A stretch of DNA of 64,000 bases, from the sequence record MG748547. The stretch is one strand, 5' to 3'. Source of the DNA: Escherichia phage EP75. Each line of letters begins with the position of its first letter. Positions within the stretch are counted from its first letter, which is position 1. Positions 3,622 through 63,537 of the stretch are shown here, piece after piece. The notes under the pieces are model-generated. The model was not told where the DNA came from. It was given only the letters and a program-made list of their open reading frames with translations, and made no database searches. The position numbers and the translations under genes are program-made.

Positions 3622-4060
3622 TTGTTTCTCCTTTTGCTGCATACGACAGAGCTTTTACGATCATAACAGCCAAACCGATAGGATCGTATGCATTGTCGAA
3701 TTCTTGTTCTATGTTCTGACGAATTTCATCAGAAGATTGTACTTCAGAGCAGTTCTTACTCTGTCTGCGTTGCTCTTGCTCGACTAGATCTTTGAACAGA
3801 AGGTCTTTGAAAGAATACTCATCGAAGTTTTCAAGATACCGTTGGATGCTTGGTTGTTTTACATCCATCGTTTGACGCAAATTGCTAATAGTTGAACTTG
3901 CCTGTTCGCGGTGTTTGTTCATAACAGCAAAGTTAACGGGCTTGCCCCAAGCATTCATCACTGGATTAGAGCATACTTGGCCAAAGAGATCTTGGAAGGC
4001 ATCATCCATGTGGATCAACGCAGTGGCCAATTCCTCATAAGTCGGTTTTTGAGTAGTCAT
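3614..4060 (-). CDS. hypothetical protein
   Basis: 148-aa ORF. Confidence 0.5.
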   Translation of the reverse strand: MTTQKPTYEELATALIHMDDAFQDLFGQVCSNPVMNAWGKPVNFAVMNKHREQASSTISNLRQTMDVKQPSIQRYLENFDEYSFKDLLFKDLVEQEQRRQSKNCSEVQSSDEIRQNIEQEFDNAYDPIGLAVMIVKALSYAAKGETNV

Positions 4061-4434
4061 TTTCGTTTACTCCGATTTTTATATTTCTTAGCCTGACGTT
4101 TATGTTGGGCGGCTCCATATAGGCGCGGCGGCTTTTGATAACGTTGTGACGCAATTATGTCTCTGTCATCGGCTTCACAATACGAAATATCTGCCTTCCG
4201 TAACTGAGCCACCGCTTGAGATACCAAGGTTTTGCGTTCACTTTCTACCAGATCATCACAAATTATCATGCGTTCACCTGGTTCACAACGACGTTTAGGA
4301 ATATCGTCTACACTGATACATTCTACTTCAACGCCTTTCAACTTTTCTTGAAGGATAAAGGCCATAGCACGAGCGCCCACCCCTCCTCCAATAATTGCAA
4401 TCTTTCTTGGCTTGTCAGACATAATACATTCCAT
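4057..4434 (-). CDS. hypothetical protein with Rossmann-like GxGxxG N-terminus (IAIIGGGVGARA) and basic tail
   Basis: 125-aa ORF; glycine-rich dinucleotide-binding-like motif seen in translation. Confidence 0.45.
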   Translation of the reverse strand: MECIMSDKPRKIAIIGGGVGARAMAFILQEKLKGVEVECISVDDIPKRRCEPGERMIICDDLVESERKTLVSQAVAQLRKADISYCEADDRDIIASQRYQKPPRLYGAAQHKRQAKKYKNRSKRK

Positions 4435-4452
4435 AAAAAGGAGGATAGAGCA

Positions 4453-4482
4453 ATAATACCCTATCCCCCTTTATTGAAGAAC
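4453..4482 (-). promoter_or_regulatory. sigma70-like promoter candidate (GTTCTT-N18-TATTAT) with TTCAATAAA element and hairpin; -10 lies in the hairpin loop
   Basis: minus-strand reading CGTTCTTCAATAAAGGGGGATAGGGTATTATTGCTCTATCC; same architecture at 7577..7606 and 12194..12223. Confidence 0.35.
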
Positions 4483-4484
4483 GA

Positions 4485-4910
4485 TTAGTCTTTGGATTCT
4501 ACTTTATCACCGCGCAGATCCTGGACGGGTTTGCCATCCGGCGACATGATGTAGATGGTGTTAATTGTCTCAAACCAGGATAGTTCATCAACTCCTTCAG
4601 TGTATGGAGTTACCGGAACTGAAGTTTTGATATGATCACCATCGTTATTTGGGGTGCCATCAGACTTCAGCACTGGCACCAGGAAGGCGAAACGACCATT
4701 TGGATAAATCACCCCGCCTTTAAACATCCGGATCTTCTTGCGAGGGTTGTTGGCCTCGCCAAGGCACACGACCAGATGATGGATCATCTCCGGACGGGTA
4801 AGCAACGTGTCGTCACGGATGATACCCTGTTTAATAGCGGAGATCACCACTTCGTCCAACAGCGCCTGCTGCTGGTCCAGCGTCAGTGATTCAGTAAGTT
4901 TCAGAGCCAT
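4485..4910 (-). CDS. hypothetical protein
   Basis: ORF trimmed to MALKL start. Confidence 0.45.
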   Translation of the reverse strand: MALKLTESLTLDQQQALLDEVVISAIKQGIIRDDTLLTRPEMIHHLVVCLGEANNPRKKIRMFKGGVIYPNGRFAFLVPVLKSDGTPNNDGDHIKTSVPVTPYTEGVDELSWFETINTIYIMSPDGKPVQDLRGDKVESKD

Positions 4911-5042
4911 TATTCGTACCCCAAACATTTGTTTAAGAAAGTCAGGACATCGTCCATGGTCTTGACCTCAATTTCAATGCCGAGTTGTTCCGCCAACTTG
5001 TTGGTGTTCTCGACGATCTCTTTGTCTCGCGCTGACATGATG

Positions 5043-5612
5043 TCAGCCTTTGAAGTTGATCGGTTTCTGAACCCCAGCGTCAAACGCGGCCTGGGTGCGG
5101 GTATCGCTCACCACCTGGCAGGTCTTGTCAAGATCGATGCGCGGGTAGCCAAACACACCAGCAATCAACGAACCAGGGAACTGAGCCAGCTTGGTTTCGT
5201 ACATCGCGCAGATGTCAAGCTTCTTGGTCTGACTGATACGGAACTCATCGCGGCCTGAGCTGATGACAACCTGGATCTCTTTGTACAGGCTGGAATCGAA
5301 CTGAATGTTCTGTTCCTGGATCCACTGCATCACAGCCTTGGAACCATCAGCGCCATAACGCCCTTCGAATGTACCTTTGATCACTTCCTTCAGGCCGTCT
5401 TTGTACATGTCAGGAATCTGCGCCGTCTCCTGAACTTTGAGCGTGTAGTTGCTCAGGTAGTTCTCGGAGTCTTTGTTGAACTTCTTGACCTGCTGCTCAG
5501 TGCGGTTGAAGTCGTTGAAATAACTGACGAAACTACCAACACCGATTACAACAAAAGCCAGAATCGCCAAACCGATGATCCAACCAATTGAAATACCTTT
5601 ACGCTGCGACAT
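5043..5612 (-). CDS. LemA-family-like membrane protein (N-terminal TM helix; C-terminal FPGSLIAGVFGY motif)
   Basis: N-terminal hydrophobic helix plus RDEF...AMYETKLAQFPGSLIAGVFGYP resembling the LemA C-terminal signature (recalled, not searched). Confidence 0.45.
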   Translation of the reverse strand: MSQRKGISIGWIIGLAILAFVVIGVGSFVSYFNDFNRTEQQVKKFNKDSENYLSNYTLKVQETAQIPDMYKDGLKEVIKGTFEGRYGADGSKAVMQWIQEQNIQFDSSLYKEIQVVISSGRDEFRISQTKKLDICAMYETKLAQFPGSLIAGVFGYPRIDLDKTCQVVSDTRTQAAFDAGVQKPINFKG

Positions 5613-5627
5613 CTTTACTTCCTCTTG

Positions 5628-6737
5628 TTAAAACAAACGTTTGTAAGTGCGACCATTGTACTGCATATGGCCTAATATGAAAATTGCGGTAAACGGAACA
5701 CAACCTAATAAAACGACGATAATCACTTCCCATGTCTTGAGGTCACGCCATTTCAGATACTCCATTTCCTTCATTTCAACGCGGTTATAGCCTTTGCTTA
5801 TATTGACTGCAACTTCTTGGAATACTGATATCCCCATGGGTTTGCCAGTCAATGAAAGACCGTTTCGGGAATGAAGTTCCATGTTATTCATCCCATCAGC
5901 AAATGACGTGGATTTACCCCAATTGATTTTCATATCCTTCGATATGTCAGTAACCACAATGACATCGTTCTTTTTACCACCAGACCATGCATATAGCAGC
6001 CCCTGAAAATATTCCACAGGCTGGCCAGAAGTCACTACCCACACGATATTGACCTGACGTGATGCCCCCAATGTTTTCAAAGTGTTGTTCAGATAATCAT
6101 TCCAATAATCAACGGGAATATCCATCCCTGACATATTCAAAACACGGGTTACTCGGTAATAATCATACACCCTCGGATATGACGGGATATGATCTTTGAA
6201 CTTCTCAGCGAATTGCTGGTCAGATTTAGAGAATAATGAATCTTTGTTGCCCAGCACATAATTCATATATGAATGTTCACGTGCCGCAGGTTCCCCGATT
6301 TTAACTTGTGCCCAACGCGGAGGCTCTGTAGTACCCTGACGATCAATACGGTCAATGCTCAGATCACCGACGGTTGTTAATACGTCCCAATCAACGTCAT
6401 AAGAGTGCTCATAGCACGTGCTGCAATGACGCGTTTGTGTACAAGATCGGTTATTTCCTGAACCAGAGCAAGAAGTTGTGTAATAGCACATACATTCATA
6501 AGAATGGCTACAACCCACCTTATTTCGTTGCTTGTCAGTAACGTACCCATTCAAAATTTCAACATCTCCCGAACTACCCAGGGAAAATGCAGCGTATGCT
6601 CCCGACTGGATAAGGCAAGACAATACGATAACAATGGCCGTGGCGATCAAAGTCTCCTTTGGCTCATGAGTCTTGCGGTGATATATCACAAACAAGATGG
6701 CCAAAATTACAGGAACCACAAACAGAAGGTAAATCAT
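5628..6737 (-). CDS. membrane protein with cysteine-rich ectodomain (two N-terminal and one C-terminal TM helices)
   Basis: 369-aa ORF; hydrophobic segments at both ends; CSHSYECMCYYTTSCSGSGNNRSCTQTRHCSTCYEH cluster. Confidence 0.5.
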   Translation of the reverse strand: MIYLLFVVPVILAILFVIYHRKTHEPKETLIATAIVIVLSCLIQSGAYAAFSLGSSGDVEILNGYVTDKQRNKVGCSHSYECMCYYTTSCSGSGNNRSCTQTRHCSTCYEHSYDVDWDVLTTVGDLSIDRIDRQGTTEPPRWAQVKIGEPAAREHSYMNYVLGNKDSLFSKSDQQFAEKFKDHIPSYPRVYDYYRVTRVLNMSGMDIPVDYWNDYLNNTLKTLGASRQVNIVWVVTSGQPVEYFQGLLYAWSGGKKNDVIVVTDISKDMKINWGKSTSFADGMNNMELHSRNGLSLTGKPMGISVFQEVAVNISKGYNRVEMKEMEYLKWRDLKTWEVIIVVLLGCVPFTAIFILGHMQYNGRTYKRLF

Positions 6738-7120
6738 AACACACCATCCACGAGTTGTTCCTTCGTCATACCAAGAAGTTGATTTTTATGAGAACTGTGC
6801 GCCCCGTTCAATTTGAGCAATTCCCAGCGTTCTTCATGATACTGTGGAGTTATTGCATCGTCAAAAGAAACATGGTGGCGATGCATAATTGTTGCAACGG
6901 TGTGAAGAACGATTGCTGTTGCTCTTTTTAAAGCACGTGTATCCGTGATGTGGTCTTCGTATTCGATTCCCATCAAATCGAGTTCTTTTCGGATATATGC
7001 TATAGACAAATCACCTTCAGAATGCAATTTAACGATAGTCGCTTTCTTAGGATGTAACACGCCGTCTGTTTCTTTCATGAACAGATCGTACAAATATTGT
7101 TTGTATTCGGGGCGCTTCAT
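6734..7120 (-). CDS. hypothetical protein
   Basis: 128-aa ORF, 4-nt overlap with upstream gene. Confidence 0.45.
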   Translation of the reverse strand: MKRPEYKQYLYDLFMKETDGVLHPKKATIVKLHSEGDLSIAYIRKELDLMGIEYEDHITDTRALKRATAIVLHTVATIMHRHHVSFDDAITPQYHEERWELLKLNGAHSSHKNQLLGMTKEQLVDGVL

Positions 7121-7338
7121 CTCGTAATCCCTCCGGCACAGATAATATTCAGTTCACCGCGACGGAAACCGCCTTGCCCACCGTTCAATTTAGTCGGAAG
7201 CGTATCTTGAACTTTTTGTGCGAACCCTTCCGACACTACCAGATGACCCTTTTCTTGTTTCGGGGTAGATTCAAAATAATCGCCAAATGTCGCTTCCATA
7301 TCGAGCACAGACATGTCTTCAATTCGTTGCATTGCCAT
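7117..7338 (-). CDS. hypothetical protein
   Basis: 73-aa ORF translationally coupled. Confidence 0.4.
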   Translation of the reverse strand: MAMQRIEDMSVLDMEATFGDYFESTPKQEKGHLVVSEGFAQKVQDTLPTKLNGGQGGFRRGELNIICAGGITR

Positions 7339-7349
7339 GATATAGGACC

Positions 7350-7541
7350 TCAGTATAATTTCGTATAAACTTGTTTAACGCCAATATCGGCAGGAGCTGT
7401 GCTCTGCTGCATATTATAGAATGCCAAATCTGCTTGTTCTTTGTTTTCAAAATCAACTACAACTGTGTGTACTGATATTGCTTCACCCTGTCCATAAGCA
7501 TAACAACGGCTGGTGACCAATATTTTGTATTGAGGTGTCAT
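7350..7541 (-). CDS. hypothetical small protein
   Basis: 63-aa ORF preceded by AAGGA RBS and hairpin promoter element. Confidence 0.35.
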   Translation of the reverse strand: MTPQYKILVTSRCYAYGQGEAISVHTVVVDFENKEQADLAFYNMQQSTAPADIGVKQVYTKLY

Positions 7542-7576
7542 AAATCAATCCTTGCAAAAGAAAGGGGAACGGGCTA

Positions 7577-7606
7577 ATAATAACCCATTCCCCTTTATTG
7601 AAGAAC
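7577..7606 (-). promoter_or_regulatory. sigma70-like promoter candidate (GTTCTT-N18-TATTAT) inside TTCAATAAA + near-perfect 10-bp hairpin followed by TTTTCTTTT
   Basis: minus strand CGTTCTTCAATAAAGGGGAATGGGTTATTATTAGCCCGTTCCCCTTTTCTTTTG; may also act as terminator. Confidence 0.35.
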
Positions 7607-7621
7607 GCAATCGCAGTCAGA

Positions 7622-7789
7622 TTACTTTTTCTTCAGCTCTTCCAGCTTGGCTTCAATTTGGTCCAGAATCTCTTTACCTTTCTGGACGATGGCTTCACCG
7701 TCTTGCGCGTGTTTACGAAAAACCAGAGCGCCAGCTACGAAGCCGACAACAACGCCAGGAAGCGCATACACCAACAGATCTTGTAACAT
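7622..7789 (-). CDS. small membrane protein (55 aa, one TM helix), below ORF-track size cutoff
   Basis: minus-strand ORF MLQDLLVYALPGVVVGFVAGALVF... with GAGGAAATAAATC-ATG RBS; co-oriented with neighbours while listed plus-strand ORFs here are antisense. Confidence 0.35.
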   Translation of the reverse strand: MLQDLLVYALPGVVVGFVAGALVFRKHAQDGEAIVQKGKEILDQIEAKLEELKKK

Positions 7790-7827
7790 GATTTATTTCC
7801 TCACTTTTATAAGCAAGGATATTTATA

Positions 7828-9063
7828 TCATCGTTTCAACAAAGACATGAGGTTTACACTGGTCGACTTCGGATTGTCCTCTATATTCCGGACGGGCATT
7901 TTCAGATTAGTGTAAACCTCAGATGGTTCCCAACGCGTACCCTGCTGCAGGTGCCATATATGTAGAGGAACACCCGTTTCAAAGAACACAGGCATCTTCC
8001 ACTTCTGGACGCCAGGAACGTGCCCTGCAGGAGCTTTTTCGCACAACAGGGTATCTGGTAGCCAGAGGGAACGGGCTTCCCATAATGCCTTACAGGAGTA
8101 CTCAGGCCAGATGCGTTCCATGTAGTCGATCTCATCCCAAGTACGCTCGGCATCCCACCCGATGTAACGGGTATTCTTCAGACGGAAGAATTTCTTAAGC
8201 CAACAAGCACCGGAGGTCTCAAAGTTCAGACGATTGATGAACGTGATGTGGCCGAACTCTTCAACGCATTCCTGAAACGCTTTCTCAAGGTCGTTTTCGA
8301 GTATATCACATTCTTCGTCTGTAATAGGACAACCGTTGATCTTTTTCTTCCCGTGCTTGGTCACCCAATCATCACGGTTGGATAAGAACGCCGCGCCGTT
8401 ACGATTGGATTCGCTACCATCACGGTCACGCAACATGAAACCAGGGACGTCTATATCCCATATGTTACCGAAGACCATGTTCAGGGCTTCCAGGAAGTTC
8501 CATGCGCTCAGGCGACCGAAGTATTTCCATGACATCGCCGTATTCCACAGTTCAGTGAACTGGTCTTCCTTGGTAGTGCATTCCAACATCCAACGAAAAG
8601 AATCCATTTGGGTTTTACCACCCAACCAATCGATATAGGACTGAACGCACGGAATCATCTTCGACTTACGATAACGACAATCTGTATCGAAGCGCATACG
8701 ATCAAAGTTCAGGTTATACCAATCAGAAAATCGCTGAAACTCTTTCGGAGATTGTGGGGGTACAGGAAATTCACTGTAAATTGTCCATGGTCCAATCCCA
8801 TTATAGCAACAACCCCACAAAAAGGCCATCCAAATCTTGCGCTCGATCTTCTCGAGCTGTGTGATGCCTTCTGTAACCTCTATGGCATAATCCATCAGAC
8901 GGACTTGCTGGTTATGCTCTTCAGTGTAGGATAGCGCCTCCACCCATGCCTTGAGCAGGTACATGCGATTTTCTGGCTTACGATAATCTACTGCCAGATC
9001 AATCGGGTATTTCCATTTTTCAGGGGCTTTATACCCCTGCGGCATTTTAGAAATGTGTATCAT
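7828..9063 (-). CDS. 411-aa enzyme of unknown fold; candidate DNA-base hypermodification enzyme (possibly thymine pyrophosphorylase-type aminotransferase)
   Basis: large Trp/Cys-rich ORF in the same tightly packed minus-strand operon as a P-loop kinase and HAD phosphatase; function is inference from context. Confidence 0.3.
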   Translation of the reverse strand: MIHISKMPQGYKAPEKWKYPIDLAVDYRKPENRMYLLKAWVEALSYTEEHNQQVRLMDYAIEVTEGITQLEKIERKIWMAFLWGCCYNGIGPWTIYSEFPVPPQSPKEFQRFSDWYNLNFDRMRFDTDCRYRKSKMIPCVQSYIDWLGGKTQMDSFRWMLECTTKEDQFTELWNTAMSWKYFGRLSAWNFLEALNMVFGNIWDIDVPGFMLRDRDGSESNRNGAAFLSNRDDWVTKHGKKKINGCPITDEECDILENDLEKAFQECVEEFGHITFINRLNFETSGACWLKKFFRLKNTRYIGWDAERTWDEIDYMERIWPEYSCKALWEARSLWLPDTLLCEKAPAGHVPGVQKWKMPVFFETGVPLHIWHLQQGTRWEPSEVYTNLKMPVRNIEDNPKSTSVNLMSLLKR

Positions 9064-9245
9064 CCGATTTTACTCCCGAGTTCAACACGGAACGCCAGAT
9101 AGAAGAAAGTGGCGATCGATACTGGACAGATCACCAAGAATGGGCGCTGTTGCACCCCTTCTGTGACCATGACGCCGACCAGCGAAACCGTAAAGATAAC
9201 GAACATCAGCATCATGAAGATAAAATCAACATGCTTGATTTTCAT
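9060..9245 (-). CDS. small membrane protein
   Basis: 61-aa ORF with two hydrophobic helices; overlaps neighbours by 4 nt. Confidence 0.4.
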   Translation of the reverse strand: MKIKHVDFIFMMLMFVIFTVSLVGVMVTEGVQQRPFLVICPVSIATFFYLAFRVELGSKIG

Positions 9246-9612
9246 CTTTCACTTCCTCTACAGGAGAAACAACTTCAGGCTCAGCTTCGGGAGCCAGCTG
9301 AATTTCTTCGGGGCTTACTACGGGCTGTCCCAGAGACCAGATAGGCAGGAAACGACGATCATTCGTCACCAACCAAATTTGCTTGGCGGTTTTCGTCTTT
9401 TCGGAAATAAAATGCTGGGCATTGACCTGGGTACGAGCCAAACCCACCTGACGCCAAGAACCGAAATCCTTAGAAGAAGGATTGGTATTCAGTTGAAATT
9501 GTGGGACGATTTTATTCTGTTCCGGATAGTAACGGACAGCGTTAATCATCTTCGCATCACCACGGTAATCAATAGCAACAGCGACAACGTTGCGTGGAAT
9601 GAGGATTTTCAT
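9226..9612 (-). CDS. hypothetical protein
   Basis: 128-aa ORF. Confidence 0.45.
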   Translation of the reverse strand: MKILIPRNVVAVAIDYRGDAKMINAVRYYPEQNKIVPQFQLNTNPSSKDFGSWRQVGLARTQVNAQHFISEKTKTAKQIWLVTNDRRFLPIWSLGQPVVSPEEIQLAPEAEPEVVSPVEEVKDENQAC

Positions 9613-9613
9613 T

Positions 9614-9817
9614 TTAATTCCTTTTGAAACTCTGAATTATGTTATAGACGAAAGGCGTTAATAAGATAGCACCCCCCAAATAATATAACGCGTAAACGTT
9701 CAATATTTCGGTTGAATCCAACTCAACGATGCCCAAATATTTCATGACACCGACAAGCACAGCTGTGATACACATCACCAATCCGACGAACACAAAATAT
9801 TTAGACATCTGTTTCAT
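9614..9817 (-). CDS. small membrane protein
   Basis: 67-aa ORF, two TM helices. Confidence 0.4.
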   Translation of the reverse strand: MKQMSKYFVFVGLVMCITAVLVGVMKYLGIVELDSTEILNVYALYYLGGAILLTPFVYNIIQSFKRN

Positions 9818-9819
9818 TT

Positions 9820-18388: not shown

Positions 18389-19714
18389 TCAATCAGGGGT
18401 AAACTCGTTCACAGGAACTTGTTCCGGCATAGACAATTCGGGGCATGCTGCCTTCATTGACTCAATATATGGCTTGCTACCCACAATCCAGAACAGAGTA
18501 TTTTCGTTGAGCAGTTCTGGCTTATGCTGTTGGATCCAGGTCATGACCTTGCCTTCATAGCGTGGATGCAGCTCAATATCGCCCCACTGATAATCCATCA
18601 GGTCATTATAGCGAACCCAATTCGTTGTGTGTAAATCCCAATGGTGTACTGCAAAGCGTGGGAGCGTTATCTCCGGCTCTCCCTTCTCGCGGATACCCAT
18701 CAGGAGGCCAGCCAGCGAAACGCTCTTAGAGGCATGCTGAAGATCCTTCTTGCCGTACACATAATCTGGGTTGTCGTGATAGCAACGAGTGAAATCCGTT
18801 ATGTGTGGAAGATTAGCTTGTTTTCCAATAACACGCAAACGGCTTTCAATAAAGTCCAGACGGTTGGGACCAATCCCGATCAGATATACATTTTTCAGAT
18901 TCGGTTTCGGGTGCATAGCCAGCCCTGTCAAAATGCTGGTACAAGAATTACATGAACCCGCAGGAATGATCAGATCTGTGATATGGTCCGGAATGTTAGC
19001 AACCTGCTCGCCGCCCAGCATATGGAATCCTGCAATTCGCTCCGGAGAATGCAACGTATGATCCAAAGTGATCCCATATTCTAGATAATATGCTTTTGGA
19101 TTCTGCTGCTCAATCAATTTCTTGCAGCGCGGTTGGATAGTGCTGTTGTAACCCGAACCGACGAAGTTGAATTCGCTGCCGAACCATGCACTCATCTTAA
19201 CCATATCGTGGTTCATACAGGTGGTTGGTTTGGTCGCGCCCAGGACTGTAGTTGTCTTGCCGCCAAAATGCCGAGAGACTGCCGTCGCCATAGGGGACTG
19301 CGGACTACCAACAACAGTGCCATGGATAAGGTCGGGGGAGCCTCCGACCTTGAGGTGCTCAACCATCAGCCAGATGGCCTGACGCAATTTACTACCATTG
19401 ATCCCCTGCTTACCATTCATATAACAAGACAGCGGCGCGAAGTAATCTTCACGTTTGAACCAGACCTGCTGATTGGTTTCGGGGTTGGCAACGAGTTCGC
19501 ACGGGGTGTGTTTGTAGAGGTAGTCTTCCCAGTGAATGATATTTCTATCAAGTGAGAGAGCATTGAAGATTGTTTTACGCCCTGCCATAAGGGCGTCAGG
19601 GGTATATGGGGCAAAGATGATACCTTCTTTCGCCATCTCTTCTTTTAGAGTAGTGGCCAAGAGTTCTTCCACTTCTTCACCGTGTAAAATTTCTTGTTCG
19701 GATGTAGGCTTCAT
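18389..19714 (-). CDS. PLP-dependent enzyme, fold-type II-like (ACC-deaminase/D-cysteine desulfhydrase-like motif)
   Basis: VWFKREDYF...GSKLRQAIWL resembles IKRDD...GGNKxRKL of ACC deaminase family (recalled). Confidence 0.4.
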   Translation of the reverse strand: MKPTSEQEILHGEEVEELLATTLKEEMAKEGIIFAPYTPDALMAGRKTIFNALSLDRNIIHWEDYLYKHTPCELVANPETNQQVWFKREDYFAPLSCYMNGKQGINGSKLRQAIWLMVEHLKVGGSPDLIHGTVVGSPQSPMATAVSRHFGGKTTTVLGATKPTTCMNHDMVKMSAWFGSEFNFVGSGYNSTIQPRCKKLIEQQNPKAYYLEYGITLDHTLHSPERIAGFHMLGGEQVANIPDHITDLIIPAGSCNSCTSILTGLAMHPKPNLKNVYLIGIGPNRLDFIESRLRVIGKQANLPHITDFTRCYHDNPDYVYGKKDLQHASKSVSLAGLLMGIREKGEPEITLPRFAVHHWDLHTTNWVRYNDLMDYQWGDIELHPRYEGKVMTWIQQHKPELLNENTLFWIVGSKPYIESMKAACPELSMPEQVPVNEFTPD

Positions 19715-19783
19715 TCTATTTCTCCTGTAGACATTGGCTTATCATAGCGTATCTACAGGAGTATAGAAAAGGAGAATCTGAGA

Positions 19784-20461
19784 TTACTTGGTCAGAAAAT
19801 CCATCAGGCGGCGGAAAAACGATTTGCGTTCTACTGGTTTCTTAGATTCAGGGACCGGAATAGAACTATCATATTTAACAACCGGAGCACCCTGATCGTT
19901 CAGAACACGACTGGCTGGTGGAGTCGGTGGAGTCGGCTTCAAAGATTTGATCGCCTGATTCAGATCGGAATTGTCCACAACACTCGCTTCTTCAGCCACA
20001 GAAACACACGGCTTGATTAAAACAGATTTCTTGGACTGCTCATACTGATGAGCGATATCTAGATATTTCTTGCGCTCAGCGTAGAAATCTACGTTCTTAA
20101 CTTTACGGCGGCGAGCAGTAGAACTCTCTTCACCATAAAAGTCATATCCATTTTTGAACATCCAATTCACTGCTTGCTCAAATGAATTGAATACCATATA
20201 CAGGCCGCGCCGCCCGTTGACCATATCGTCTTCGCTGGAATAACCGATGAACACCGCTTGGCCTTTCTTGTTCAGATCAAATGGGGTGCAGACGCCCGTA
20301 TCATCTAGGGAACGCGGTGCGAGGTGCCCGTCTCTGTAAATGTAAGCCGGATACAAGAACTCATTCAGAGTGCGCTTGTTGCCTTTATATGTGTACAGAC
20401 GAGCAAATGGAGGCAGATCACAAACAACATCATTGTAATCCCAAATTGTTACATTGCGCAT
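19784..20461 (-). CDS. hypothetical protein
   Basis: 225-aa ORF. Confidence 0.5.
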   Translation of the reverse strand: MRNVTIWDYNDVVCDLPPFARLYTYKGNKRTLNEFLYPAYIYRDGHLAPRSLDDTGVCTPFDLNKKGQAVFIGYSSEDDMVNGRRGLYMVFNSFEQAVNWMFKNGYDFYGEESSTARRRKVKNVDFYAERKKYLDIAHQYEQSKKSVLIKPCVSVAEEASVVDNSDLNQAIKSLKPTPPTPPASRVLNDQGAPVVKYDSSIPVPESKKPVERKSFFRRLMDFLTK

Positions 20462-20532
20462 GGTGTTTCCTCAAATCAATGAAGGGGTTTATAAACGGTT
20501 AAATTTTAAACCCCTTATTGTCATTGAACAAA

Positions 20533-21048
20533 TCAAATACTGGTCATATAGAGTGGGACAACCTGCTCAGCGATGAAGATGGCTTCCGTAATGGTAAAAT
20601 CATTTCCATAAGATCTGGCAATAATTTGACTACCGTTTGTTGCTAAATTACCGTCCTTGTCCACACTGAAGAATGTAGGAAATGACAAGATATCTTGTCC
20701 CGTTAACGCAGCGTCTCGACTTTTCGTTAATTGGTTCCCCGCAGACCCAACAAAATTCAGTTCTAATGTTCGGTTATTGGTGGATCCTTGCCATGCGCCT
20801 ATCAAATTTATTTTCAGCGTTACAGTTGAGTCATTATTAAAAACTTTGAATTTATTAGTTGCTAAATCAAAGAATGGTGTCATCGCCGTAGAACCAGCGA
20901 CAGGAGTTTTATCAACAAACAACGACAATAAATCTACGCCAGTTGCACCAGTAGGAATATTGAGAGACAATCCGGAAAATCTGACTTCTGTTTTGATGCG
21001 ATGGGTCTGAAGCATATTCCCCAAATAGGGAGATGTCAAAATGGCCAT
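20533..21048 (-). CDS. hypothetical protein
   Basis: 171-aa ORF. Confidence 0.5.
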   Translation of the reverse strand: MAILTSPYLGNMLQTHRIKTEVRFSGLSLNIPTGATGVDLLSLFVDKTPVAGSTAMTPFFDLATNKFKVFNNDSTVTLKINLIGAWQGSTNNRTLELNFVGSAGNQLTKSRDAALTGQDILSFPTFFSVDKDGNLATNGSQIIARSYGNDFTITEAIFIAEQVVPLYMTSI

Positions 21049-21057
21049 ACTCCCTCC

Positions 21058-21291
21058 TTAAGAAACGATAACCGTCGCATCAGAATTAATTGCCTTAACC
21101 CATCCCACCGTCGGCGGGGTTAAAACGACCATATTTCCTTGATATATGATATGCGCGTTGTTACCCGTTGGAGTGCTGGGGCTATCACACAGATACACAG
21201 AACCGTGAGTCACTTGAAGAGTTTTCAAAGATGTGCCGTCTGAGACTTGCGTCCATGTACTTGCGTTTGGTGTGATCTTAGCAGTTGCCAT
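21058..21291 (-). CDS. hypothetical small protein
   Basis: 77-aa ORF with AAGGAGG RBS. Confidence 0.45.
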   Translation of the reverse strand: MATAKITPNASTWTQVSDGTSLKTLQVTHGSVYLCDSPSTPTGNNAHIIYQGNMVVLTPPTVGWVKAINSDATVIVS

Positions 21292-21329
21292 AATAGACCT
21301 CCTTTACAAGTCAGATCTATTTATTACAG

Positions 21330-21360
21330 ACAAAAAGAAACCCGATCATCCTGATCGGGC
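21330..21360 (-). terminator. terminator hairpin CCCGATCA-GG-TGATCGGG followed by TTTCTTTTT, closing the tRNA-region transcript
   Basis: read on minus strand. Confidence 0.5.
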
Positions 21361-21774
21361 TATGTTAAACCATCGTGGGGATGGAAAGACTACTCACAGC
21401 AATTTCTGATAATGGGCGTTGGGAGAGTGCGTCGGGAATCGAACCCGAAATCGTCAGGACGCTGAAAGCTATTTGCATTTCACTTGCATATCCTGCGACT
21501 TTCTTAACTTCCTTAACCCCAGATTGTTATGAAGTCGGCATGCACACCTTCTTCATCTTCAGGAAGTCACACTCATAATTTGATTTGCGATGATGAACCC
21601 ATTTCATCTGGGGTTGGGTGAGTGGGAGTTGAACCCACAACGCTTGGCTCGCTTTCCCTACCATTCAGGCCACCCAATTCCAGGAGGTAGAGCACCTTTG
21701 CCGTCGGTGCCCATATGCCAGTCTTCCGCCCTGGCCTCCACTCGCGTCTGGGATTTCCGCGATGATCGCAAATT

Positions 21775-21858
21775 TGGTGTGAGTGGATGGATTTGAACCA
21801 CCGCGCTGTTACGGGGAGATTTACAGTCTCCTGCATTCGACCGCTCTGCCACACTCAC
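21775..21858 (-). tRNA. tRNA-Tyr (anticodon GTA), class II with long variable arm, CCA encoded
   Basis: hand-folded cloverleaf: acceptor GTGAGTG/CACTCAC perfect, anticodon loop CTGTAAA, T-arm GGTGG-TTCAAAT-CCATC. Confidence 0.8.
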
Positions 21859-22253
21859 ATTTAGTCTACCGCCGCGTGCTGGGCCACGCTTGAGGACATC
21901 GGCCATCCTTCCTCAGCTAATCCACGCGGCGGTAGATTTGGATCAGAGTGTACGGTGTAGCATTCCGCAGGGGTGCACCTACTGTAGCCCTTCCACTCTG
22001 AAATTGGTGGGTGTTACTTCCGTCGGGTTCAGATTCCGTTCGGCTATTGGACTTCGCTTCAAGAGCTTGTCGTTCGCGTACTTCGTGCTTACTTGCTTTC
22101 GTTCACACCCATTGTTTGTCGTCGGGTGGGGGATTCAAACCCCAATCTTTAGTTTGCGTTTCTTCAAAGCTATCATATGTTCACTTTGAATAATAAACTC
22201 CCCTGGACATCATAACAGGATCTCTATTTCATCCTGCAAGACCCGACATAATA

Positions 22254-22329
22254 TGGCGACGATGACAGGACTTGAACCTGCGACATATGGATTAACAGTC
22301 CACCGTTCTACCGACTGAACTACATCGTC
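22254..22329 (-). tRNA. tRNA-Asn (anticodon GTT), CCA encoded
   Basis: hand-folded: acceptor GACGATG/CATCGTC perfect, D-arm GTTC-AGTCGGTA-GAAC, anticodon loop CTGTTAA, T-loop TTCAAGT. Confidence 0.85.
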
Positions 22330-22471
22330 AAATTTTGTGAAGACCAAACGCCGGATCGTAACGGTCGTATGTCTTCGGGTGGCTGTCGTTCTTGATGCTT
22401 ACCATGCGCAGATCATAAGACTGATTCTGCAGGACATACACCAACCACAGCTGTTTTATAAATTCCATCAT
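22328..22471 (-). CDS. small ORF (47 aa) between tRNA-Met and tRNA-Asn
   Basis: minus-strand ATG with GGTGAGG RBS; stop overlaps tRNA-Asn 5' end by 2 nt. Confidence 0.25.
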   Translation of the reverse strand: MMEFIKQLWLVYVLQNQSYDLRMVSIKNDSHPKTYDRYDPAFGLHKI

Positions 22472-22514
22472 AAAGATACCTCACCAAATTTTATTGAACA
22501 ACTGGTTTATTTAG

Positions 22515-22590
22515 TGGTGACCCTGGCTGGACTTGAACCAGCGACCAATCGATTATGAGTCGACTGCTCTAACCACTGAGCTACGGGGCC
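22515..22590 (-). tRNA. tRNA-Met/Ile2-type (anticodon CAT), CCA encoded
   Basis: hand-folded: D-arm GCTC-AGTGGTTA-GAGC, anticodon loop CTCATAA, T-arm GCTGG-TTCAAGT-CCAGC; one C-A mismatch in acceptor stem. Confidence 0.7.
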
Positions 22591-24784
22591 AAAATTGGCG
22601 GGGTCTGAGGCTTTTCACCTCACCTGCTGGATTGGCCTCCAGCTGTTCTCTCTGGGGACTCGCTGTCCGGACAGCTATCCCTTAAACTATCGCCCCATAT
22701 TCAATTGCACCAGAGCATAATTACCGCTATACGACCACCCTCTCGGGCAGGTTGGTTCTGACCCAACGTCTCTCTGATGCGTTTTATTGTGTGCCCAATC
22801 AAGGACTGTCAACCTTTTATCCCGTTTGTGCATGATCAGTTCATGCATGCCTCTTGTGCGCCTCACGGCAACGCGCTTCTGTAGGTCATCGACTTGCACT
22901 GTAGTCTCACCACAGGCGTTTATTTTTCCAGGGCTTTCCACTTACAAGTCTTAACCAGATCGGGATACGGGCTTGTAAGATCGGATTGGACACAACTTTG
23001 ATGGCTCTAGGACTAAAGATCCCGCGTCACCCATAGACTTGGTTTATAAAATCTAGAGCCATCAAAGTTGCAACCAATGTCGCAACTCGCACTTCAGCGT
23101 CTTCGTCTCGCTTCAGCACTTGTCCTCTACGTTCGGACCAAACGAGGCTGGCCGACAGAAACATAACACCACTCATCACTAGAGCGAGGATGTGGTTGAT
23201 AGCCACGATGTTACGTCTCTGTCGTAGAGTGATCACACTTGTCAGGATGATCACTGTTTTGCGAACTTGAAAATACTGCGCCTGTCTCGGGTTTCCCCTT
23301 AGTTCGGCCTCTCATTGTTCGTCTGGTCAGGGAGCTACCCTTGATGACCAGCTTATTTTGAGATCTTCGCCAGCACCCACTAGTGTCTAGAATATGTAGG
23401 TGTCGAGGTCTGCAAGGCATTGCCCTATTTCATACAACGCTCTCTCAAGTGCGCAAATCGAAGTTCTCTGGGCTTAACAGGTTCGACCCAACATGTTGTA
23501 TATCGCCTAACTTGCTCATGGGACGGACACATCTGTGTACAGACCTTGAGGGTTAAAAGATATACCCAGAGAACTTCGATTTGCGTAGCCCTTCACTTGC
23601 CAAAGATCAGGGCTAATAACAAGACTTCGCTCACATCTTTGAGGACACTGCGCGGGACTCGAACCCGCCATGAACATCTGGCGCCAAATGCTTCCACCTG
23701 TCAATGTCCTCAAAGATGTGGAGCCGTTTTAGGGAGTCGAACCCAAATGATTGGCCAGCGCTGACCTCACATCCCATCTGACTTAGGCAACCCACCTCTG
23801 CTACTCAGGAGCTTATCCCCTTTGGACAGTCAGATATAACGGCTTTGGGATTGGAGGAAGGACTCGAACCTTCTCATGTACGCTCCTGATTTCTCAGAAG
23901 TAGCCTGCTCCCATCGACCTATTAAGTACACGCTCCGCTCATTGTTCGGCGGGAGCTTATTAATCACACCCTCCCACCTATTGTTAGTGCGCCGAATTTT
24001 GTTATGAGGAATCGGAAGACCTCACTGACTTATAGGCTATTACGCCGCCATCAGAACTTCGGAATCATTAGCAGTTATTTGCTTGGTCAGTTTCTAAAAA
24101 CCCGCAAAGTCACGCACAACGAAAACGAAAACCTGTTTGAGTCCTAAACCTACCTGTCTTGGTCTCACATCGATATGAGTGGCCAGGACTCAAACAGCTT
24201 GCCGTTCAGTGAGTTAACTATACTTTGTAACCCGTTATTGATAAAACCTTTTATTTTGTTGGCGAGGGTGCGGAATCGAACCACACTTCTGAGCGCTACC
24301 CCGTGTCACCAATGCACCACCTCACCATCGATTTGCCGGAACTTACGCATCCGGCCTCGTCCTGTCGGTGTTCTTCTGAATCCGGGAAGATCAGCAGGAA
24401 CTATGAATCAAGTTAATTCAACCAACAGGAATCCTCTTGTTGCCCTTTGACGCAACATTATGAACCCTCTATGAAGACTCATAATGTTGTCGGCGTGATG
24501 GAGATTAGCGCCCCCGACCTCCCCTTATATGTTGGTGTCGACTTGCCAACAGGGTGCTCTCTGATTCTGAGCTAATCACGCTACAACAGGGAGTTTCGTT
24601 CTCCGACGGTCAAGTGCGTCCACTGACACCAGCGAGGTGGCTATTACGCCTCTATTCACACAAGCCCCTGAGACTAGGGGTTAACTGGTTTTGGGCTGCA
24701 AACCCGACTCCCACTGTGTTATTTCCCTCATGTTTAATACTTTACCGCAGCCCAGCTAATTTGAAAAGTCCTCTCCCCTTTGAG

Positions 24785-24931
24785 CTACACTGCCCACAGC
24801 AGTGCGGACGAACCTTCACTCAAAACCGGATGCGCCGAAGTGGGCAACTGTTTACCGGACTGATCGGGTAGACCCAGGAGAGAGCAGGTAATCCCGATCA
24901 GGAGGATGAGGAGTAACATCATGTAAAACAT
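24785..24931 (-). CDS. small hydrophobic protein (48 aa, one TM helix)
   Basis: minus-strand ORF MFYMMLLLILLIGITCSLLG... with GGAAGGGAGGG RBS. Confidence 0.3.
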   Translation of the reverse strand: MFYMMLLLILLIGITCSLLGLPDQSGKQLPTSAHPVLSEGSSALLWAV

Positions 24932-24988
24932 AGTGTTCCCTCCCTTCCATGCAACTAACTTTACTACAATTATTTATTGAATAAAGCG

Positions 24989-25558
24989 TTATTTTAACAC
25001 TTCTAACTTCACAACACGACGCAGAAGGTAAACATATTCGCCAGCAGCTTCATGCGTCATATAATGGGTAGAAGGTGTGGAATGATTGTTCTGGGTTTCT
25101 TTTAATCCAACACGTTCTGCCCAACCATTAATAGAGTTCCCATAGAAACCGATAATCGCGCCAAAATAAATGCGCTGGCTTTCTGGCTCTAAAACATAGT
25201 TGACAGTGAAGCAAATATCAGAACGAATAGACTCCAGTTTCATACCAACACGACCTTCGGAGAATTCGTTACGAACATATAAATGACGGAAACGATCGCG
25301 CCGCGCTTGTGATGATTCTTCCAATTCTTGTCGGAGTGAAGAAGTTACGTCAATATTAAATGAAAATGTTGGATTCTGTAAATCGGAACGGGCCAACTCT
25401 AACGCAGATTCAACAACGCGACGGAAATTGATACTTTTACCTGTCAGGCGTTTCACTTCATCTGTGATTGTTCCAAAAGGGATTTTCGTGGCGCGTTCCC
25501 CTTCGTATTTTGCCAATAAAGGAATAATGTGTTTCATGATTGCTGTGTTAATGTGCAT
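24989..25558 (-). CDS. hypothetical protein
   Basis: 189-aa ORF; upstream TTCAATAAA + TATAAT hairpin element. Confidence 0.5.
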   Translation of the reverse strand: MHINTAIMKHIIPLLAKYEGERATKIPFGTITDEVKRLTGKSINFRRVVESALELARSDLQNPTFSFNIDVTSSLRQELEESSQARRDRFRHLYVRNEFSEGRVGMKLESIRSDICFTVNYVLEPESQRIYFGAIIGFYGNSINGWAERVGLKETQNNHSTPSTHYMTHEAAGEYVYLLRRVVKLEVLK

Positions 25559-25873
25559 TCCGGAGCCTCACCGAATTGATTAAATGTCTCCATTATTATA
25601 TTGGAGATACGTTTATTGAATATAAACACAGGAATGGCCAATAAAATAATGACAGTGATTATTAATAGGTAAAAACTACTTTTCTACAACATCAAGAAAC
25701 TGTATCTTAACGCGGTGCCCTTCGAGTTGTGAGTGTTAACGAACAACGAGAAGCAGCCTCCATGGCTGCGGAATGGGACTGCCTGTCAAGGCGGTGTTAC
25801 GAGCGAGGGCTTTAGCCCCCTCGCGAGTATATTCGAATAAATTAACGCGCGAGAGCGTTTTGATTCCCTTTGG

Positions 25874-29735: not shown

Positions 29736-29742
29736 CTAAATA
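29736..29742 (+). promoter_or_regulatory. late-promoter-like motif CTAAATA followed by hairpin
   Basis: AACTAAATACCCCTAGATGACATGAATACATTTAGGGGTATT upstream of tail spike gene. Confidence 0.4.
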
Positions 29743-29779
29743 CCCCTAGATGACATGAATACATTTAGGGGTATTACAA

Positions 29780-32860: not shown

Positions 32861-32867
32861 CTAAATA
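32861..32867 (+). promoter_or_regulatory. late-promoter-like motif CTAAATA + conserved hairpin
   Basis: AGTTCAGACTAAATACCCCATATTGG...TATGGGGTAT; near-identical ~60-bp block at 35072..35134. Confidence 0.4.
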
Positions 32868-32900
32868 CCCCATATTGGTCATCCTTTATGGGGTATTATC

Positions 32901-35027: not shown

Positions 35028-35040
35028 TAAGTAACTTATG

Positions 35041-35066
35041 CCCCGCTTTGGCGGGGTTCTTATTAT
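35041..35066 (+). terminator. rho-independent terminator CCCCGC-TTTG-GCGGGG + T-rich
   Basis: read directly. Confidence 0.55.
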
Positions 35067-35096
35067 ACCTTTGTTCATAAATTTTATTAGTTCAGA

Positions 35097-35103
35097 CTAA
35101 ATA
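35097..35103 (+). promoter_or_regulatory. late-promoter-like motif CTAAATA + conserved hairpin
   Basis: duplicate of 32846..32898 block. Confidence 0.4.
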
Positions 35104-35124
35104 CCCCATATTGGCAAATCCTTT

Positions 35125-62999: not shown

Positions 63000-63021
63000 T
63001 TAAAAGAATTCAATAAACGGG

Positions 63022-63050
63022 GTTTACTTCTTCAATAAACCCCGTATACT
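63022..63050 (+). promoter_or_regulatory. T4-early-like sigma70 promoter GTTTAC-N17-TATACT overlapping hairpin CGGGGTTTA/TAAACCCCG
   Basis: GTTTACTTCTTCAATAAACCCCGTATACT; same as 16141..16169. Confidence 0.5.
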
Positions 63051-63099: not shown

Positions 63100-63537
63100 A
63101 TGACCACAGCAAAAGTTACCATCTACGCTTTCGACGCTTTCTCTAAATTCGACGCATTCGTCTCCTCCGCATTTGGTATCAAAGAAGTTGAAGCAGAGAA
63201 AACTTTCTGTGGTGGACTCGGCAAGTTTGCCAACCTGAGTTTATCCCTGACAGAGTTCATGAAATCTCTTGAAGGTCACTTTGACGCCGAAACCATTCGC
63301 ACTTCCTTACTCAAGAAAGACGGCACCCCTCGCAAACTGTCTGGCAAGACTAGAATTTACGATGCTGACGGCTTTACTGTGTCTGTGCATTTTACTGAAG
63401 AACCTGTGTACGAACTTTTCAGCGGGTCTGAAGACCTCACTCACTATGTGGTCAGGAAAGGCGATTCCCGCCCTGTGTTCGAATCTGGCGACATCCTCGC
63501 CGCTATCAAAGAACTTGCGCGTCTGAATAGCCTCTAA
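63100..63537 (+). CDS. hypothetical protein
   Basis: 145-aa ORF downstream of early-like promoter. Confidence 0.5.
   Translation: MTTAKVTIYAFDAFSKFDAFVSSAFGIKEVEAEKTFCGGLGKFANLSLSLTEFMKSLEGHFDAETIRTSLLKKDGTPRKLSGKTRIYDADGFTVSVHFTEEPVYELFSGSEDLTHYVVRKGDSRPVFESGDILAAIKELARLNSL

Follow-up and report, generated by a model that had tools for sequence, protein, structure and literature searches.

We analysed a stretch of 64,000 nucleotides (nt) from Escherichia phage EP75 (sequence record MG748547), which we call the window throughout, and in which an eight-base box, TTCAATAA, recurs between genes, followed at a nearly fixed distance by a promoter-like -10 hexamer at the apex of a hairpin. A megablast of positions 4000–12500 matched 274 phage records, the best being Salmonella phage GEC_vB_GOT (GOT), at 97.4% identity, which places the window in the genus Kuttervirus of the family Ackermannviridae (Vi01-like phages). 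The family includes Vi01, CBA120, Det7, LIMEstone and relatives, and its members are widely used as biocontrol and therapy phages. Along the window, rIIA is followed by the DNA polymerase gene (12220–15318, minus strand), a tRNA region and the structural genes (plus strand, about 26–61 kb).

The gene map of the window is a simple map of open reading frames (ORFs), by which intergenic DNA makes up ~7% (about 4.6 kb) and coding DNA about 59 kb. Genome-wide counts were made on the whole of GOT and the whole of Klebsiella phage Bullseye, which belongs to another genus, each concatenated. The chance level of the box was taken from 100 shuffles of the window.

Class B sites in the window

The sites fall into two classes. 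In class B the box lies 12 (11–14) base pairs (bp) upstream of a near-consensus -10 hexamer, and the hexamer is found at the apex of a hairpin; class A is described further below. We name each site after the coordinate at which its box begins. The class B sites and their settings are as follows.

4432–4478, minus strand: cassette 1, with the box TTCAATAA at 4471–4478, TATTAT at 4453–4458 and a U-run at 4435–4439
4437–4472, minus strand: hairpin of cassette 1, 16 bp with a UUAU loop (dG -24.7 kcal/mol, z -5.25), after the TAA (4485–4487) of ORF 4485–4928 and before ORF 4057–4434, whose ATG is at 4434
7552–7602, minus strand: cassette 2, with the box at 7595–7602, TATTAT at 7577–7582 and the tail CUUUUG
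7561–7596, minus strand: hairpin of cassette 2, 16 bp with a UUAU loop (dG -29.7 kcal/mol, z -6.24), between ORF 7622–7789 and ORF 7350–7541
12187–12219, minus strand: cassette 3, with the box at 12212–12219, TATAAT at 12194–12199 and a weak U-run
12187–12206, minus strand: hairpin of cassette 3, AGGGGGA/TCCCCCT around TATAAT, directly after the TGA (12220–12222) of the DNA polymerase gene; the ATG of the next ORF is at 12162
20477–20528, minus strand: cassette 4, with the one-mismatch box TTCAATGA at 20521–20528, N12 and TAAAAT at 20503–20508
20477–20520, minus strand: hairpin of cassette 4 (dG -15.9), in which 15 pairs enclose the hexamer, with a weak U-run, between ORF 20533–21048 and ORF 19784–20461; variants are found in at least 7 related loci
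24217–24242, minus strand: class B-like site, with the one-mismatch box ATCAATAA at 24235–24242, N12 and TATAGT at 24217–24222; its hairpin is weak or imperfect
25587–25620, minus strand: cassette 5, with the box at 25613–25620 and TATAAT at 25595–25600 in the hairpin loop, without a U-run
25587–25607, minus strand: hairpin of cassette 5, weak, 6 bp (TCTCCA/TGGAGA, z -1.27), in a divergent intergenic region at the start of a minus-strand unit, upstream of ORF 24989–25558

An earlier note on this DNA had listed six sites, the class B sites 4478, 7602, 12219 and 25620 and two of class A. All six are present at the coordinates given and their sequences read as it described, and the list missed the one-mismatch members 20528 and 24242 as well as copies of the box at 63009, 16136, 24981 and 22498. 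The note had also placed the hexamer in the loop of a G-rich hairpin. This description suits 12219, where TATAAT is the 6-nt loop of GGGGGA/TCCCCC. It does not suit 4478 and 7602, where the hexamer forms the tip of a 16-bp stem and only 4 nt, UUAU, are left in the loop, nor 25620, where the stem is TCTCCA/TGGAGA and weak (z -1.3). A GC-rich hairpin with an immediate U-run after a stop codon, as expected of a Rho-independent terminator, is found at 4478 and 7602.

Two neighbouring structures were seen along the way. Just after the hairpin of cassette 3 there is a second conserved stem-loop, CTGTT...AACAG (12164–12186, minus strand), which takes in part of the Shine-Dalgarno sequence of the downstream gene and would stand at the extreme 5' end of a transcript from the embedded promoter. 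The 24242 site lies just downstream of a tRNA-like remnant (about 24258–24324, minus strand), which retains a complete acceptor stem (GGTGAGG/CCTCGCC) and T arm (TGTGG-TTCGATT-CCGCA) and lacks an anticodon stem. Neither ARAGORN nor Rfam calls this remnant, and it coincides with an 80-nt insertion relative to GOT.

Frequency and register of the box

The box occurs 15 times in the window against 4.29 ± 2.36 expected, and 15 copies were reached in none of the 100 shuffles. Ten copies are intergenic and five coding, a roughly 26-fold higher density between genes, so that the motif is commoner outside coding regions, as the earlier note's proposal needed it to be. The motif search which that note had suggested, extended from the window to both whole genomes, shows the box to be the commonest intergenic 8-mer in GOT (23 intergenic and 22 coding copies) and again in Bullseye (19 and 7). 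The combination TTCAATAA-N12-TATWAT is present in the window four times exactly and once with one mismatch, compared with 0.10 expected. In its fullest form the box is a palindrome, TTTATT-C-AATAAA.

Of the 23 intergenic boxes of GOT, 20 are oriented to a gene start at most 132 nt downstream. The offset from the start of the box to the start of the hexamer is 20 at 7 of these 23 sites and at 6 of the 19 in Bullseye, and a few class B sites have an offset of 19, 21 or 22, which gives a spacing mode of N12 and a range of 11–14. In all, GOT has about 13 class B-like sites and 8 of class A. The gap between the box and the start of base pairing in the stem ranges from 0 to 5 nt: at 4478 and 7602, where the AAA of the box itself belongs to the stem, it is 0, and at 12219 and 25620 it is 5. 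At two GOT sites, 86320 and 25804, the register of box, N12 and hexamer is kept without any hairpin. The varying distance to the stem, the fixed register and the hairpin-free sites together connect the box with the -10 hexamer, hence with a promoter, rather than with the stem.

These observations bear on the idea that the box is the A-rich 5' flank of bidirectional terminators, with its complement UUUAUUGAA serving as the antisense U-tract, so that the A/T-rich apex loop would be incidental and no promoter would exist. The AAA of the box does pair with the U-run and lengthen the stem at 4478, 7602, 63009 and GOT 63210, and a scan of the plus strand scores the 12187–12206 hairpin as a terminator followed by TTGTTTTATT. 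However, the box keeps its spacing from the hexamer and not from the stem, including at the two hairpin-free GOT sites, and its conserved TTC/GAA part would be needless in a U-tract. Moreover, the ordinary terminators of the same genome have loops of 3–5 nt and no box, and no lineage has lost either the A2 or the T6 of the hexamer. We regard this explanation as quite unlikely.

Conservation and covariation

The plan of the post-polymerase site (12219), namely the box, 11–14 nt and then (T/G)ATAAT or TATACT at a hairpin apex, is kept in Kuttervirus, Agtrevirus, Limestonevirus, Klebsiella phages, Miltonvirus, Erwinia phage Bue1 and one uncultured lineage. Its stem exists in four different, fully complementary versions across six genera and the uncultured lineage: GGGGGA/TCCCCC, GGGGGC/GCCCCC, GTGAGGC/GCCTCAC and GTGGGG/CCCCAC. 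We give these stems directly, having dropped a formal covariation count on one consensus structure, as loop sizes move the pairing register between lineages. At 25620 the GOT ortholog carries a compensatory change that keeps the pairing (TCTCCA/TGGAGA to TTCCCA/TGGGGA).

Cassettes of the 4478 and 7602 types are conserved at orthologous positions. The orthologs of the former in Maynard, MK-13, EspM4VN, LIMEstone1 and Bullseye keep the box, N12 and TATTAT. The apex of the latter reads TATTAT, TAATAT, TATATT, AATAAT or GATAAT across lineages and never loses A2 and T6, which are the key positions of a -10 element. The 24242 site has the GOT ortholog 135877, GTCAATAA-N12-TATAGT. At least 17 unrelated hairpins are built on the same plan of box, spacing and apex. 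As a control we considered 152 intergenic hairpin entries of GOT, most of which have loops of 3–5 nt; a -10-like apex is present in 16, and in 8 of these 16 the box lies 19–22 nt upstream. Across the enterobacterial Ackermannviridae the sequences demonstrate the motif, the hairpins and the constant register, together with the conservation and covariation of these elements.

Some of these elements have been annotated singly. The GenBank record of Maynard gives the 7602 ortholog as a terminator, and that of LIMEstone1 gives the orthologs of both 4478 and 7602 as terminators and, within that of the 4478 ortholog, marks the apex hexamer as a minus_10_signal. In the AG3 genome paper the 12219 ortholog (Porf237) and a class A site are predicted sigma70 promoters, and the shared box and hairpin go unremarked. 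A literature search returned no paper that names the TTCAATAA motif and no Ackermannviridae transcriptome.

Conservation of the post-polymerase hairpin despite its weak U-run could also be expected if the hairpins were sites of binding or processing at the RNA level, for a RegA-like repressor or RegB-like nuclease that recognises the UAUAAU apex, or were 3' stabilisers. RegA-like and RegB-like proteins are indeed encoded in the family. On the other hand, the linear distance from box to apex stays constant over 5' arms of 6 to 16 nt, which suits recognition of duplex DNA rather than folded RNA, and an Rfam scan found three tRNAs only and no curated RNA family at the cassettes. We think an RNA-level role very improbable as the main explanation.

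Another reading takes the cassettes mainly as substrates for recombination, through PeSL-type shuffling or as cruciform hot spots, with regulation secondary. The cassettes flank ORFs of unknown function, and about 4 of 18 Kuttervirus indel breakpoints are no more than 65 nt away from one. The 63-amino-acid ORF 7350–7541 (minus strand), directly downstream of the 7602 cassette, is missing in two close relatives (L011 and L019) which keep the cassette, an instance of an ORF gained or lost at a cassette border. Most breakpoints, though, lie hundreds of nt from any cassette, and the conservation of orthologous positions across genera argues for selection on a function in place. It would be surprising if recombination were the principal role.

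Outside the enterobacterial phages the picture changes. The box is absent from the intergenic DNA of the distantly related Vibrio phage D504, which has GAGTATAAT-type intergenic motifs after terminators and encodes, beside an HU-like gene, a 600-amino-acid sigma70-family protein (7393–9195, plus strand; Pfam regions 2 and 4). Present in the enterobacterial genera and absent here, the box is a trait of the enterobacterial clade. The distant Vibrio relatives, whose genome backbone is similar, differ in their regulatory solution.

Predicted class A promoters and other copies of the box

Class A comprises predicted GTTTAC-N17-TATACT promoters with two copies of the box, one within the spacer and one before the -35 element. 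Two lie in the window, together with two copies of the box that fit neither class (22498 and 24981).

16129–16169, plus strand: class A promoter, with -35 GTTTAC(T) at 16141–16147, the box at 16150–16157 and -10 TATACT at 16164–16169
16129–16136, plus strand: inverted copy of the box, TTATTGAA, upstream of the same promoter; the next ORF starts at 16219
63009–63050, plus strand: class A promoter in a hairpin, with an upstream box at 63009–63016 and -10 TATACT at 63045–63050, before ORF 63100–63537
63017–63045, plus strand: hairpin of this promoter, 10 bp (dG -14.6, z -4.6), whose loop holds -35 GTTTAC at 63022–63027 and the spacer box at 63031–63038
24958–24981, minus strand: copy of the box at 24974–24981 in the palindromic context ACGCTTTATTCAATAAAT, with a weak TAAAGT at 24958–24963, 18 nt downstream, and without a hairpin
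22491–22498, minus strand: copy of the box that follows the late-type motif ACTAAATA by 9 nt and precedes a Shine-Dalgarno sequence by 10 nt, just after tRNA-Met

Both promoters show the features of a T4-type early (sigma70) promoter at 16141–16169 and 63022–63050, namely GTTTAC, a 17-bp spacer (counted from GTTTAC), a TATAAT-like -10 element and an A/T-rich upstream region. The earlier note's suggestion of a T4-early-like promoter on the plus strand is supported in the form TTTACT-N16-TATACT, one of 8 such intergenic promoters in GOT. Its claim that both overlap a hairpin holds for 63017–63045 (10 bp, z -4.6), while at 16141–16169 there is only an A/T inverted repeat of the box, formed by 16129–16136 and 16150–16157 (dG -5, z -0.2). 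Of the 8 GOT promoters, 7 have at least one copy of the box, 5 have it in the spacer, and in 6 a copy, in one orientation or the other, immediately precedes the -35 element. Among class A orthologs TTTACT and the box stay constant and the rest of the spacer varies; the 16129–16169 arrangement is also found in Bullseye and Serratia 2050H1, and the 63009–63050 site is identical in Bullseye.

Proposed mechanism

We consider it fairly likely that these sites are compact cassettes, in which the intrinsic terminator of the upstream gene and the promoter of the downstream gene overlap in ~50 bp. In class B the box, TTCAATAA(A), would lie at about -32 to -25, with the -10 element (TATAAT or TATTAT) 12 (11–14) bp downstream at the apex of the terminator. 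An RNA polymerase arriving from upstream would transcribe both arms, so that the hairpin forms and transcription stops or is attenuated at the U-run. A polymerase starting at the embedded promoter would begin about 7 nt past the hexamer, within the 3' arm; its RNA would lack the 5' arm, form no hairpin and continue into the next gene. The predicted class B starts fall on a purine in the 3' arm (A4446 and G7570), with a leader of 25–35 nt that contains a Shine-Dalgarno sequence, and from this position the cassette's own transcript would escape the terminator. In class A a strong sigma70 early-type promoter (GTTTAC-N17-TATAMT) would stand around or just after a hairpin, with one box within its spacer and another immediately before its -35 element. 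From these arrangements we infer promoter activity, the start sites and, for class B, the replacement of the -35 element by a box that would be read by a phage-encoded or phage-modified factor, in the way that T4 middle promoters use the MotA box.

The combined terminator-promoter unit, one of the two interpretations given in the earlier note, fits this proposal, with strong terminators at 4478 and 7602 (annotated in Maynard and LIMEstone1) and a box spaced 12 bp from the hexamer. The other, a promoter occluded or activated by RNA or DNA structure, found no specific support. On a simpler reading, hairpin and promoter overlap to save space, and the start site thereby comes to lie within the 3' arm. 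The note did not relate the sites to the PeSL cassettes of T4-like phages or to the -30-box geometry of middle promoters, nor did it remark that a 14-bp spacer bars TTCAAT from being a normal -35 element.

Several points weigh against our proposal. The U-run is weak at 12219, 20528 and 25620, and the hairpins at 12219 and 25620 may only attenuate transcription or act otherwise. Folding by itself could favour apexes that are palindromic and consist of A and T only. Nor is the box confined to the -30 position, as it also occurs at 63009 (abutting a hairpin, with no -10 element at offset 20), in class A spacers and beside a ribosome-binding site (RBS) at 22498. No homolog of MotA, AsiA or an extra sigma factor was found in annotation (PHROG-based for Bullseye) or by tblastn, which makes the proposed reader of the box hypothetical. 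Finally, a literature search turned up neither mapped starts or ends of transcripts nor reporter results for any phage of the Ackermannviridae.

Promoter type and candidate box-binding proteins

The class B hexamers are excellent sigma70 -10 elements (TAnnnT), reading TATAAT, TATTAT, TATGAT or GATAAT. This raises the question whether unmodified host polymerase could use class B as ordinary sigma70 promoters without any phage factor, with the box acting as an A/T-rich UP-like element or -35 surrogate and the cassette otherwise the same. The near-consensus hexamers agree with this, as does 12219, which scores 10/12 as TTGATT-18-TATAAT and is a predicted sigma70 promoter in AG3, and no phage activator was found by annotation or tblastn. 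Yet three of the four named sites lack a -35 element of at least 4/6 matches at a spacing of 16–18 bp, and none has the TGn of an extended -10. In addition, an invariant 8-mer held in a fixed register 14 bp from the -10 element is unlike what sigma70 region 4 or the alpha C-terminal domain reads (PMC2988021 and established promoter knowledge). We judge ordinary sigma70 promoters to be a rather unlikely explanation.

Class B may instead be a factor-dependent, non-late promoter class. This dependence is suggested because the sites have no normal -35 element, show the geometry of middle promoters and are separate from the late genes, which use another motif; we place the factor itself well below an even chance. 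In tblastn searches of GOT, Bullseye and the window with a Vibrio-phage sigma70-family protein, T4 AsiA and T4 MotA (the T4 query sequences being entered by hand), nothing scored below E = 0.03; remote homologs may exist. A middle-promoter geometry in which sigma would be appropriated, found together with no MotA or AsiA, points to a missing trans-acting factor.

A number of other assignments of the box or its reader were considered and rejected. As a sigma70 -35 element TTCAAT would have a spacer of 14 bp, and at 16–18 bp most sites have at most 3/6 matches. Neither the box as a T4 MotA box nor the ACGCTTTA context as a Mot box suits in sequence and spacing, and a late promoter is excluded as the late genes bear ACTAAATA. 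A host IHF site (WATCAANNNNTTR) lacks its TTR part, on a check made by eye only. A weak MotA match on the ORF after the 63031 promoter was unsupported by Pfam or PDB sequence searches. An N4-type phage RNA polymerase acting on hairpin promoters was set aside too, since the label of GOT gp120c lacks Pfam support and its product shows no similarity to the Vibrio-phage sigma factor. This gene (34238–36253, minus strand), the only one labelled 'putative DNA-directed RNA polymerase', has only PHROG matches of unknown function, and a predicted hairpin-free class B promoter lies 85 nt upstream of it.

A bolder and rather doubtful possibility is that TTCAATAA is the operator of an early-to-middle switch in the enterobacterial Ackermannviridae. 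A box-binding phage protein unrelated to MotA and AsiA would activate class B from -30 and shut off class A through the copies that flank its -35 element. Candidate binders would be an HU/IHF-family protein, acting in the manner of SPO1 TF1 on hydroxymethyluracil (hmU)-type DNA, or the phrog_639 'regulator'. If true, one factor and one 8-mer in different registers would replace the whole AsiA/MotA system of T4. An HU/IHF-family protein is encoded in both genomes (GOT gp100c, 22877–23155, minus strand; Bullseye 91696–91974; Pfam E = 1e-29), and its PDB matches include 1exe and 1wtu (SPO1 TF1). The palindromic box (A/G)CGCTTTATTCAATAA is found about 70–90 nt upstream of its gene in GOT and Bullseye, and the 16-mer context of 24981 recurs before the HU/IHF-like gene, at 73223 in GOT and at 91609 in Bullseye. 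We treat the palindromic box near this gene as a lead, not as evidence.

Probable late promoters and neighbouring genes

The motif ACTAAATA has 11 matches in the window against 1.7 expected, 10 of them on the plus strand of the structural block. They are located as follows.

29735, 32860, 35096, 40288, 46804, 47576, 51827, 54629, 57435 and 58653, plus strand: ACTAAATA, 20–50 nt upstream of the ATG of a structural gene
22508–22515, minus strand: ACTAAATA

The core of T4 late promoters is TATAAATA, and ACTAAATA is probably the gp55-type late promoter core of EP75. Three of the motifs, upstream of tailspike genes, lead into hairpins (29739–29775, 32864–32897 and 35099–35135, plus strand; dG -19 to -20). 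The 5' arm is the 3' part of the motif (AATACCCC...) and the 3' arm (...GGGGTATT) holds the Shine-Dalgarno sequence; at least 6 more are present in GOT. This looks like the arrangement of T4 genes e and soc, by which only transcripts from the late promoter would be translatable.

Domain searches with 16 cassette-adjoining ORFs gave unknown function throughout, save for two proteins. The 149-amino-acid product of 17903–18349 (minus strand) has an ADP-ribosyltransferase domain (Pfam ART-PolyVal, E = 1.6e-10), and could be a counterpart of the T4 RNA polymerase modifiers Alt and Mod, which would bear on the switching between promoter classes. The 441-amino-acid product of 18392–19714 (minus strand) has a weak match to pyridoxal phosphate (PLP)-dependent enzymes (PALP, E = 4e-7), below the Pfam cut-off; it may belong to the thymidine hypermodification pathway of ViI-like phages.

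Implications

Our results suggest a promoter and terminator grammar for the whole family, with an early class GTTTAC-N17-TATAMT, a class with a -30 box, TTCAATAA-N12-TATAAT, and a late class ACTAAATA. This information can be used directly in the annotation of Ackermannviridae genomes. If they work as proposed, the cassettes would be very compact transcriptional insulators of about 45–50 bp, and could serve as parts for synthetic biology.

Comparison with known systems

Bidirectional Rho-independent terminators share with 4478 and 7602 a GC-rich stem, an A-tract upstream and a U-tract downstream. They differ in that the A-tract of class B is part of an invariant 8-mer registered to the apex hexamer and not to the stem, and the apex is a -10 consensus.

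SPO1 TF1 is an HU-family protein that binds hmU DNA at early promoters, and Ackermannviridae phages reportedly carry a hypermodified thymidine derived from hmU. As in SPO1 an HU/IHF-family protein is encoded here, and a palindromic box would suit a dimer. Binding of the box by the phage HU-like protein is a candidate interaction only, and the IHF consensus WATCAANNNNTTR is unmatched.

The T4 genes e, soc, 49 and I-TevI have late promoters inside hairpins that hide the RBS. The likeness to class B is that the promoter lies in the hairpin and its own transcript, without the 5' arm, escapes the effect of the hairpin. In T4 that effect is translational. Class B, by contrast, has a U-run behind the 3' arm and a Shine-Dalgarno sequence that is not part of the stem, so that the effect would be transcriptional. 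The T4-like version with a hidden RBS seems to be present in the window as well, at the late ACTAAATA promoters.

In T4 middle promoters a box lies 12 bp ± 1 from a stringent -10 element and there is no -35 element (Hinton 2010, PMC2988021). Class B shares this geometry, with no -35 element and a box centred near -30, 12 ± 1 bp upstream of an excellent -10 element. The T4 box is 9–10 bp long, and its sites, as here, lie upstream of non-structural genes of unknown function and genes of nucleotide and DNA metabolism. The box itself differs, TGCTTtA in T4 (MotA consensus (a/t)(a/t)(a/t)TGCTTtA) against TTCAATAA(A) here, where no MotA or AsiA homolog was found in annotation or by tblastn.

The closest parallel is given by the PeSL and PmSL cassettes of the T4-like phages phi1/RB49, PST/T4 and nt-1/KVP40 (PMC2839356, PMC4122927). 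In phi1/RB49 the stem-loops of PeSLs overlap the -10 element, and reporters showed both terminator and promoter activity (Arbiol et al. 2010, PMC2839356); PmSLs contain a Mot box, which in the version of Vibrio phage nt-1 is combined with TATTAT (Comeau et al. 2014, PMC4122927). In both systems there are many copies per genome, the adjoining ORFs are of unknown function, and the intergenic order of stop codon, A/T-rich stretch, promoter, stable stem-loop, Shine-Dalgarno sequence and ATG, for which we tested, is found here as well. The PeSL and PmSL stem-loops overlap the -10 or -35 element or lie between them; here the -10 element is at the apex in class B, and the -35 element and spacer are in the loop at 63017–63045. 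Like PmSLs, class B pairs a -30 box with a -10 element, and TATTAT occurs in both. With regard to promoter elements, class A has a -35 and a -10 element (TTTACT-N16/17-TATAMT), while class B has an excellent -10 element without a -35 element or TGCTT Mot box, and carries another box at the Mot position. The shared element is a TTGACA/GTTTAC -35 or a TGCTT Mot box in the T4-like phages and TTCAATAA in the Ackermannviridae, where the box also occurs in the spacer and upstream of early-type promoters, the link to indels is weak and the cassettes are predicted from sequence. Overlapping a terminator with a promoter is thus a design already known in T4-like phages, and the TTCAATAA box and any protein that reads it are previously undescribed. 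Our proposal would carry the PeSL concept, in which terminator and promoter overlap in one cassette, over to phages outside the T4-like group.

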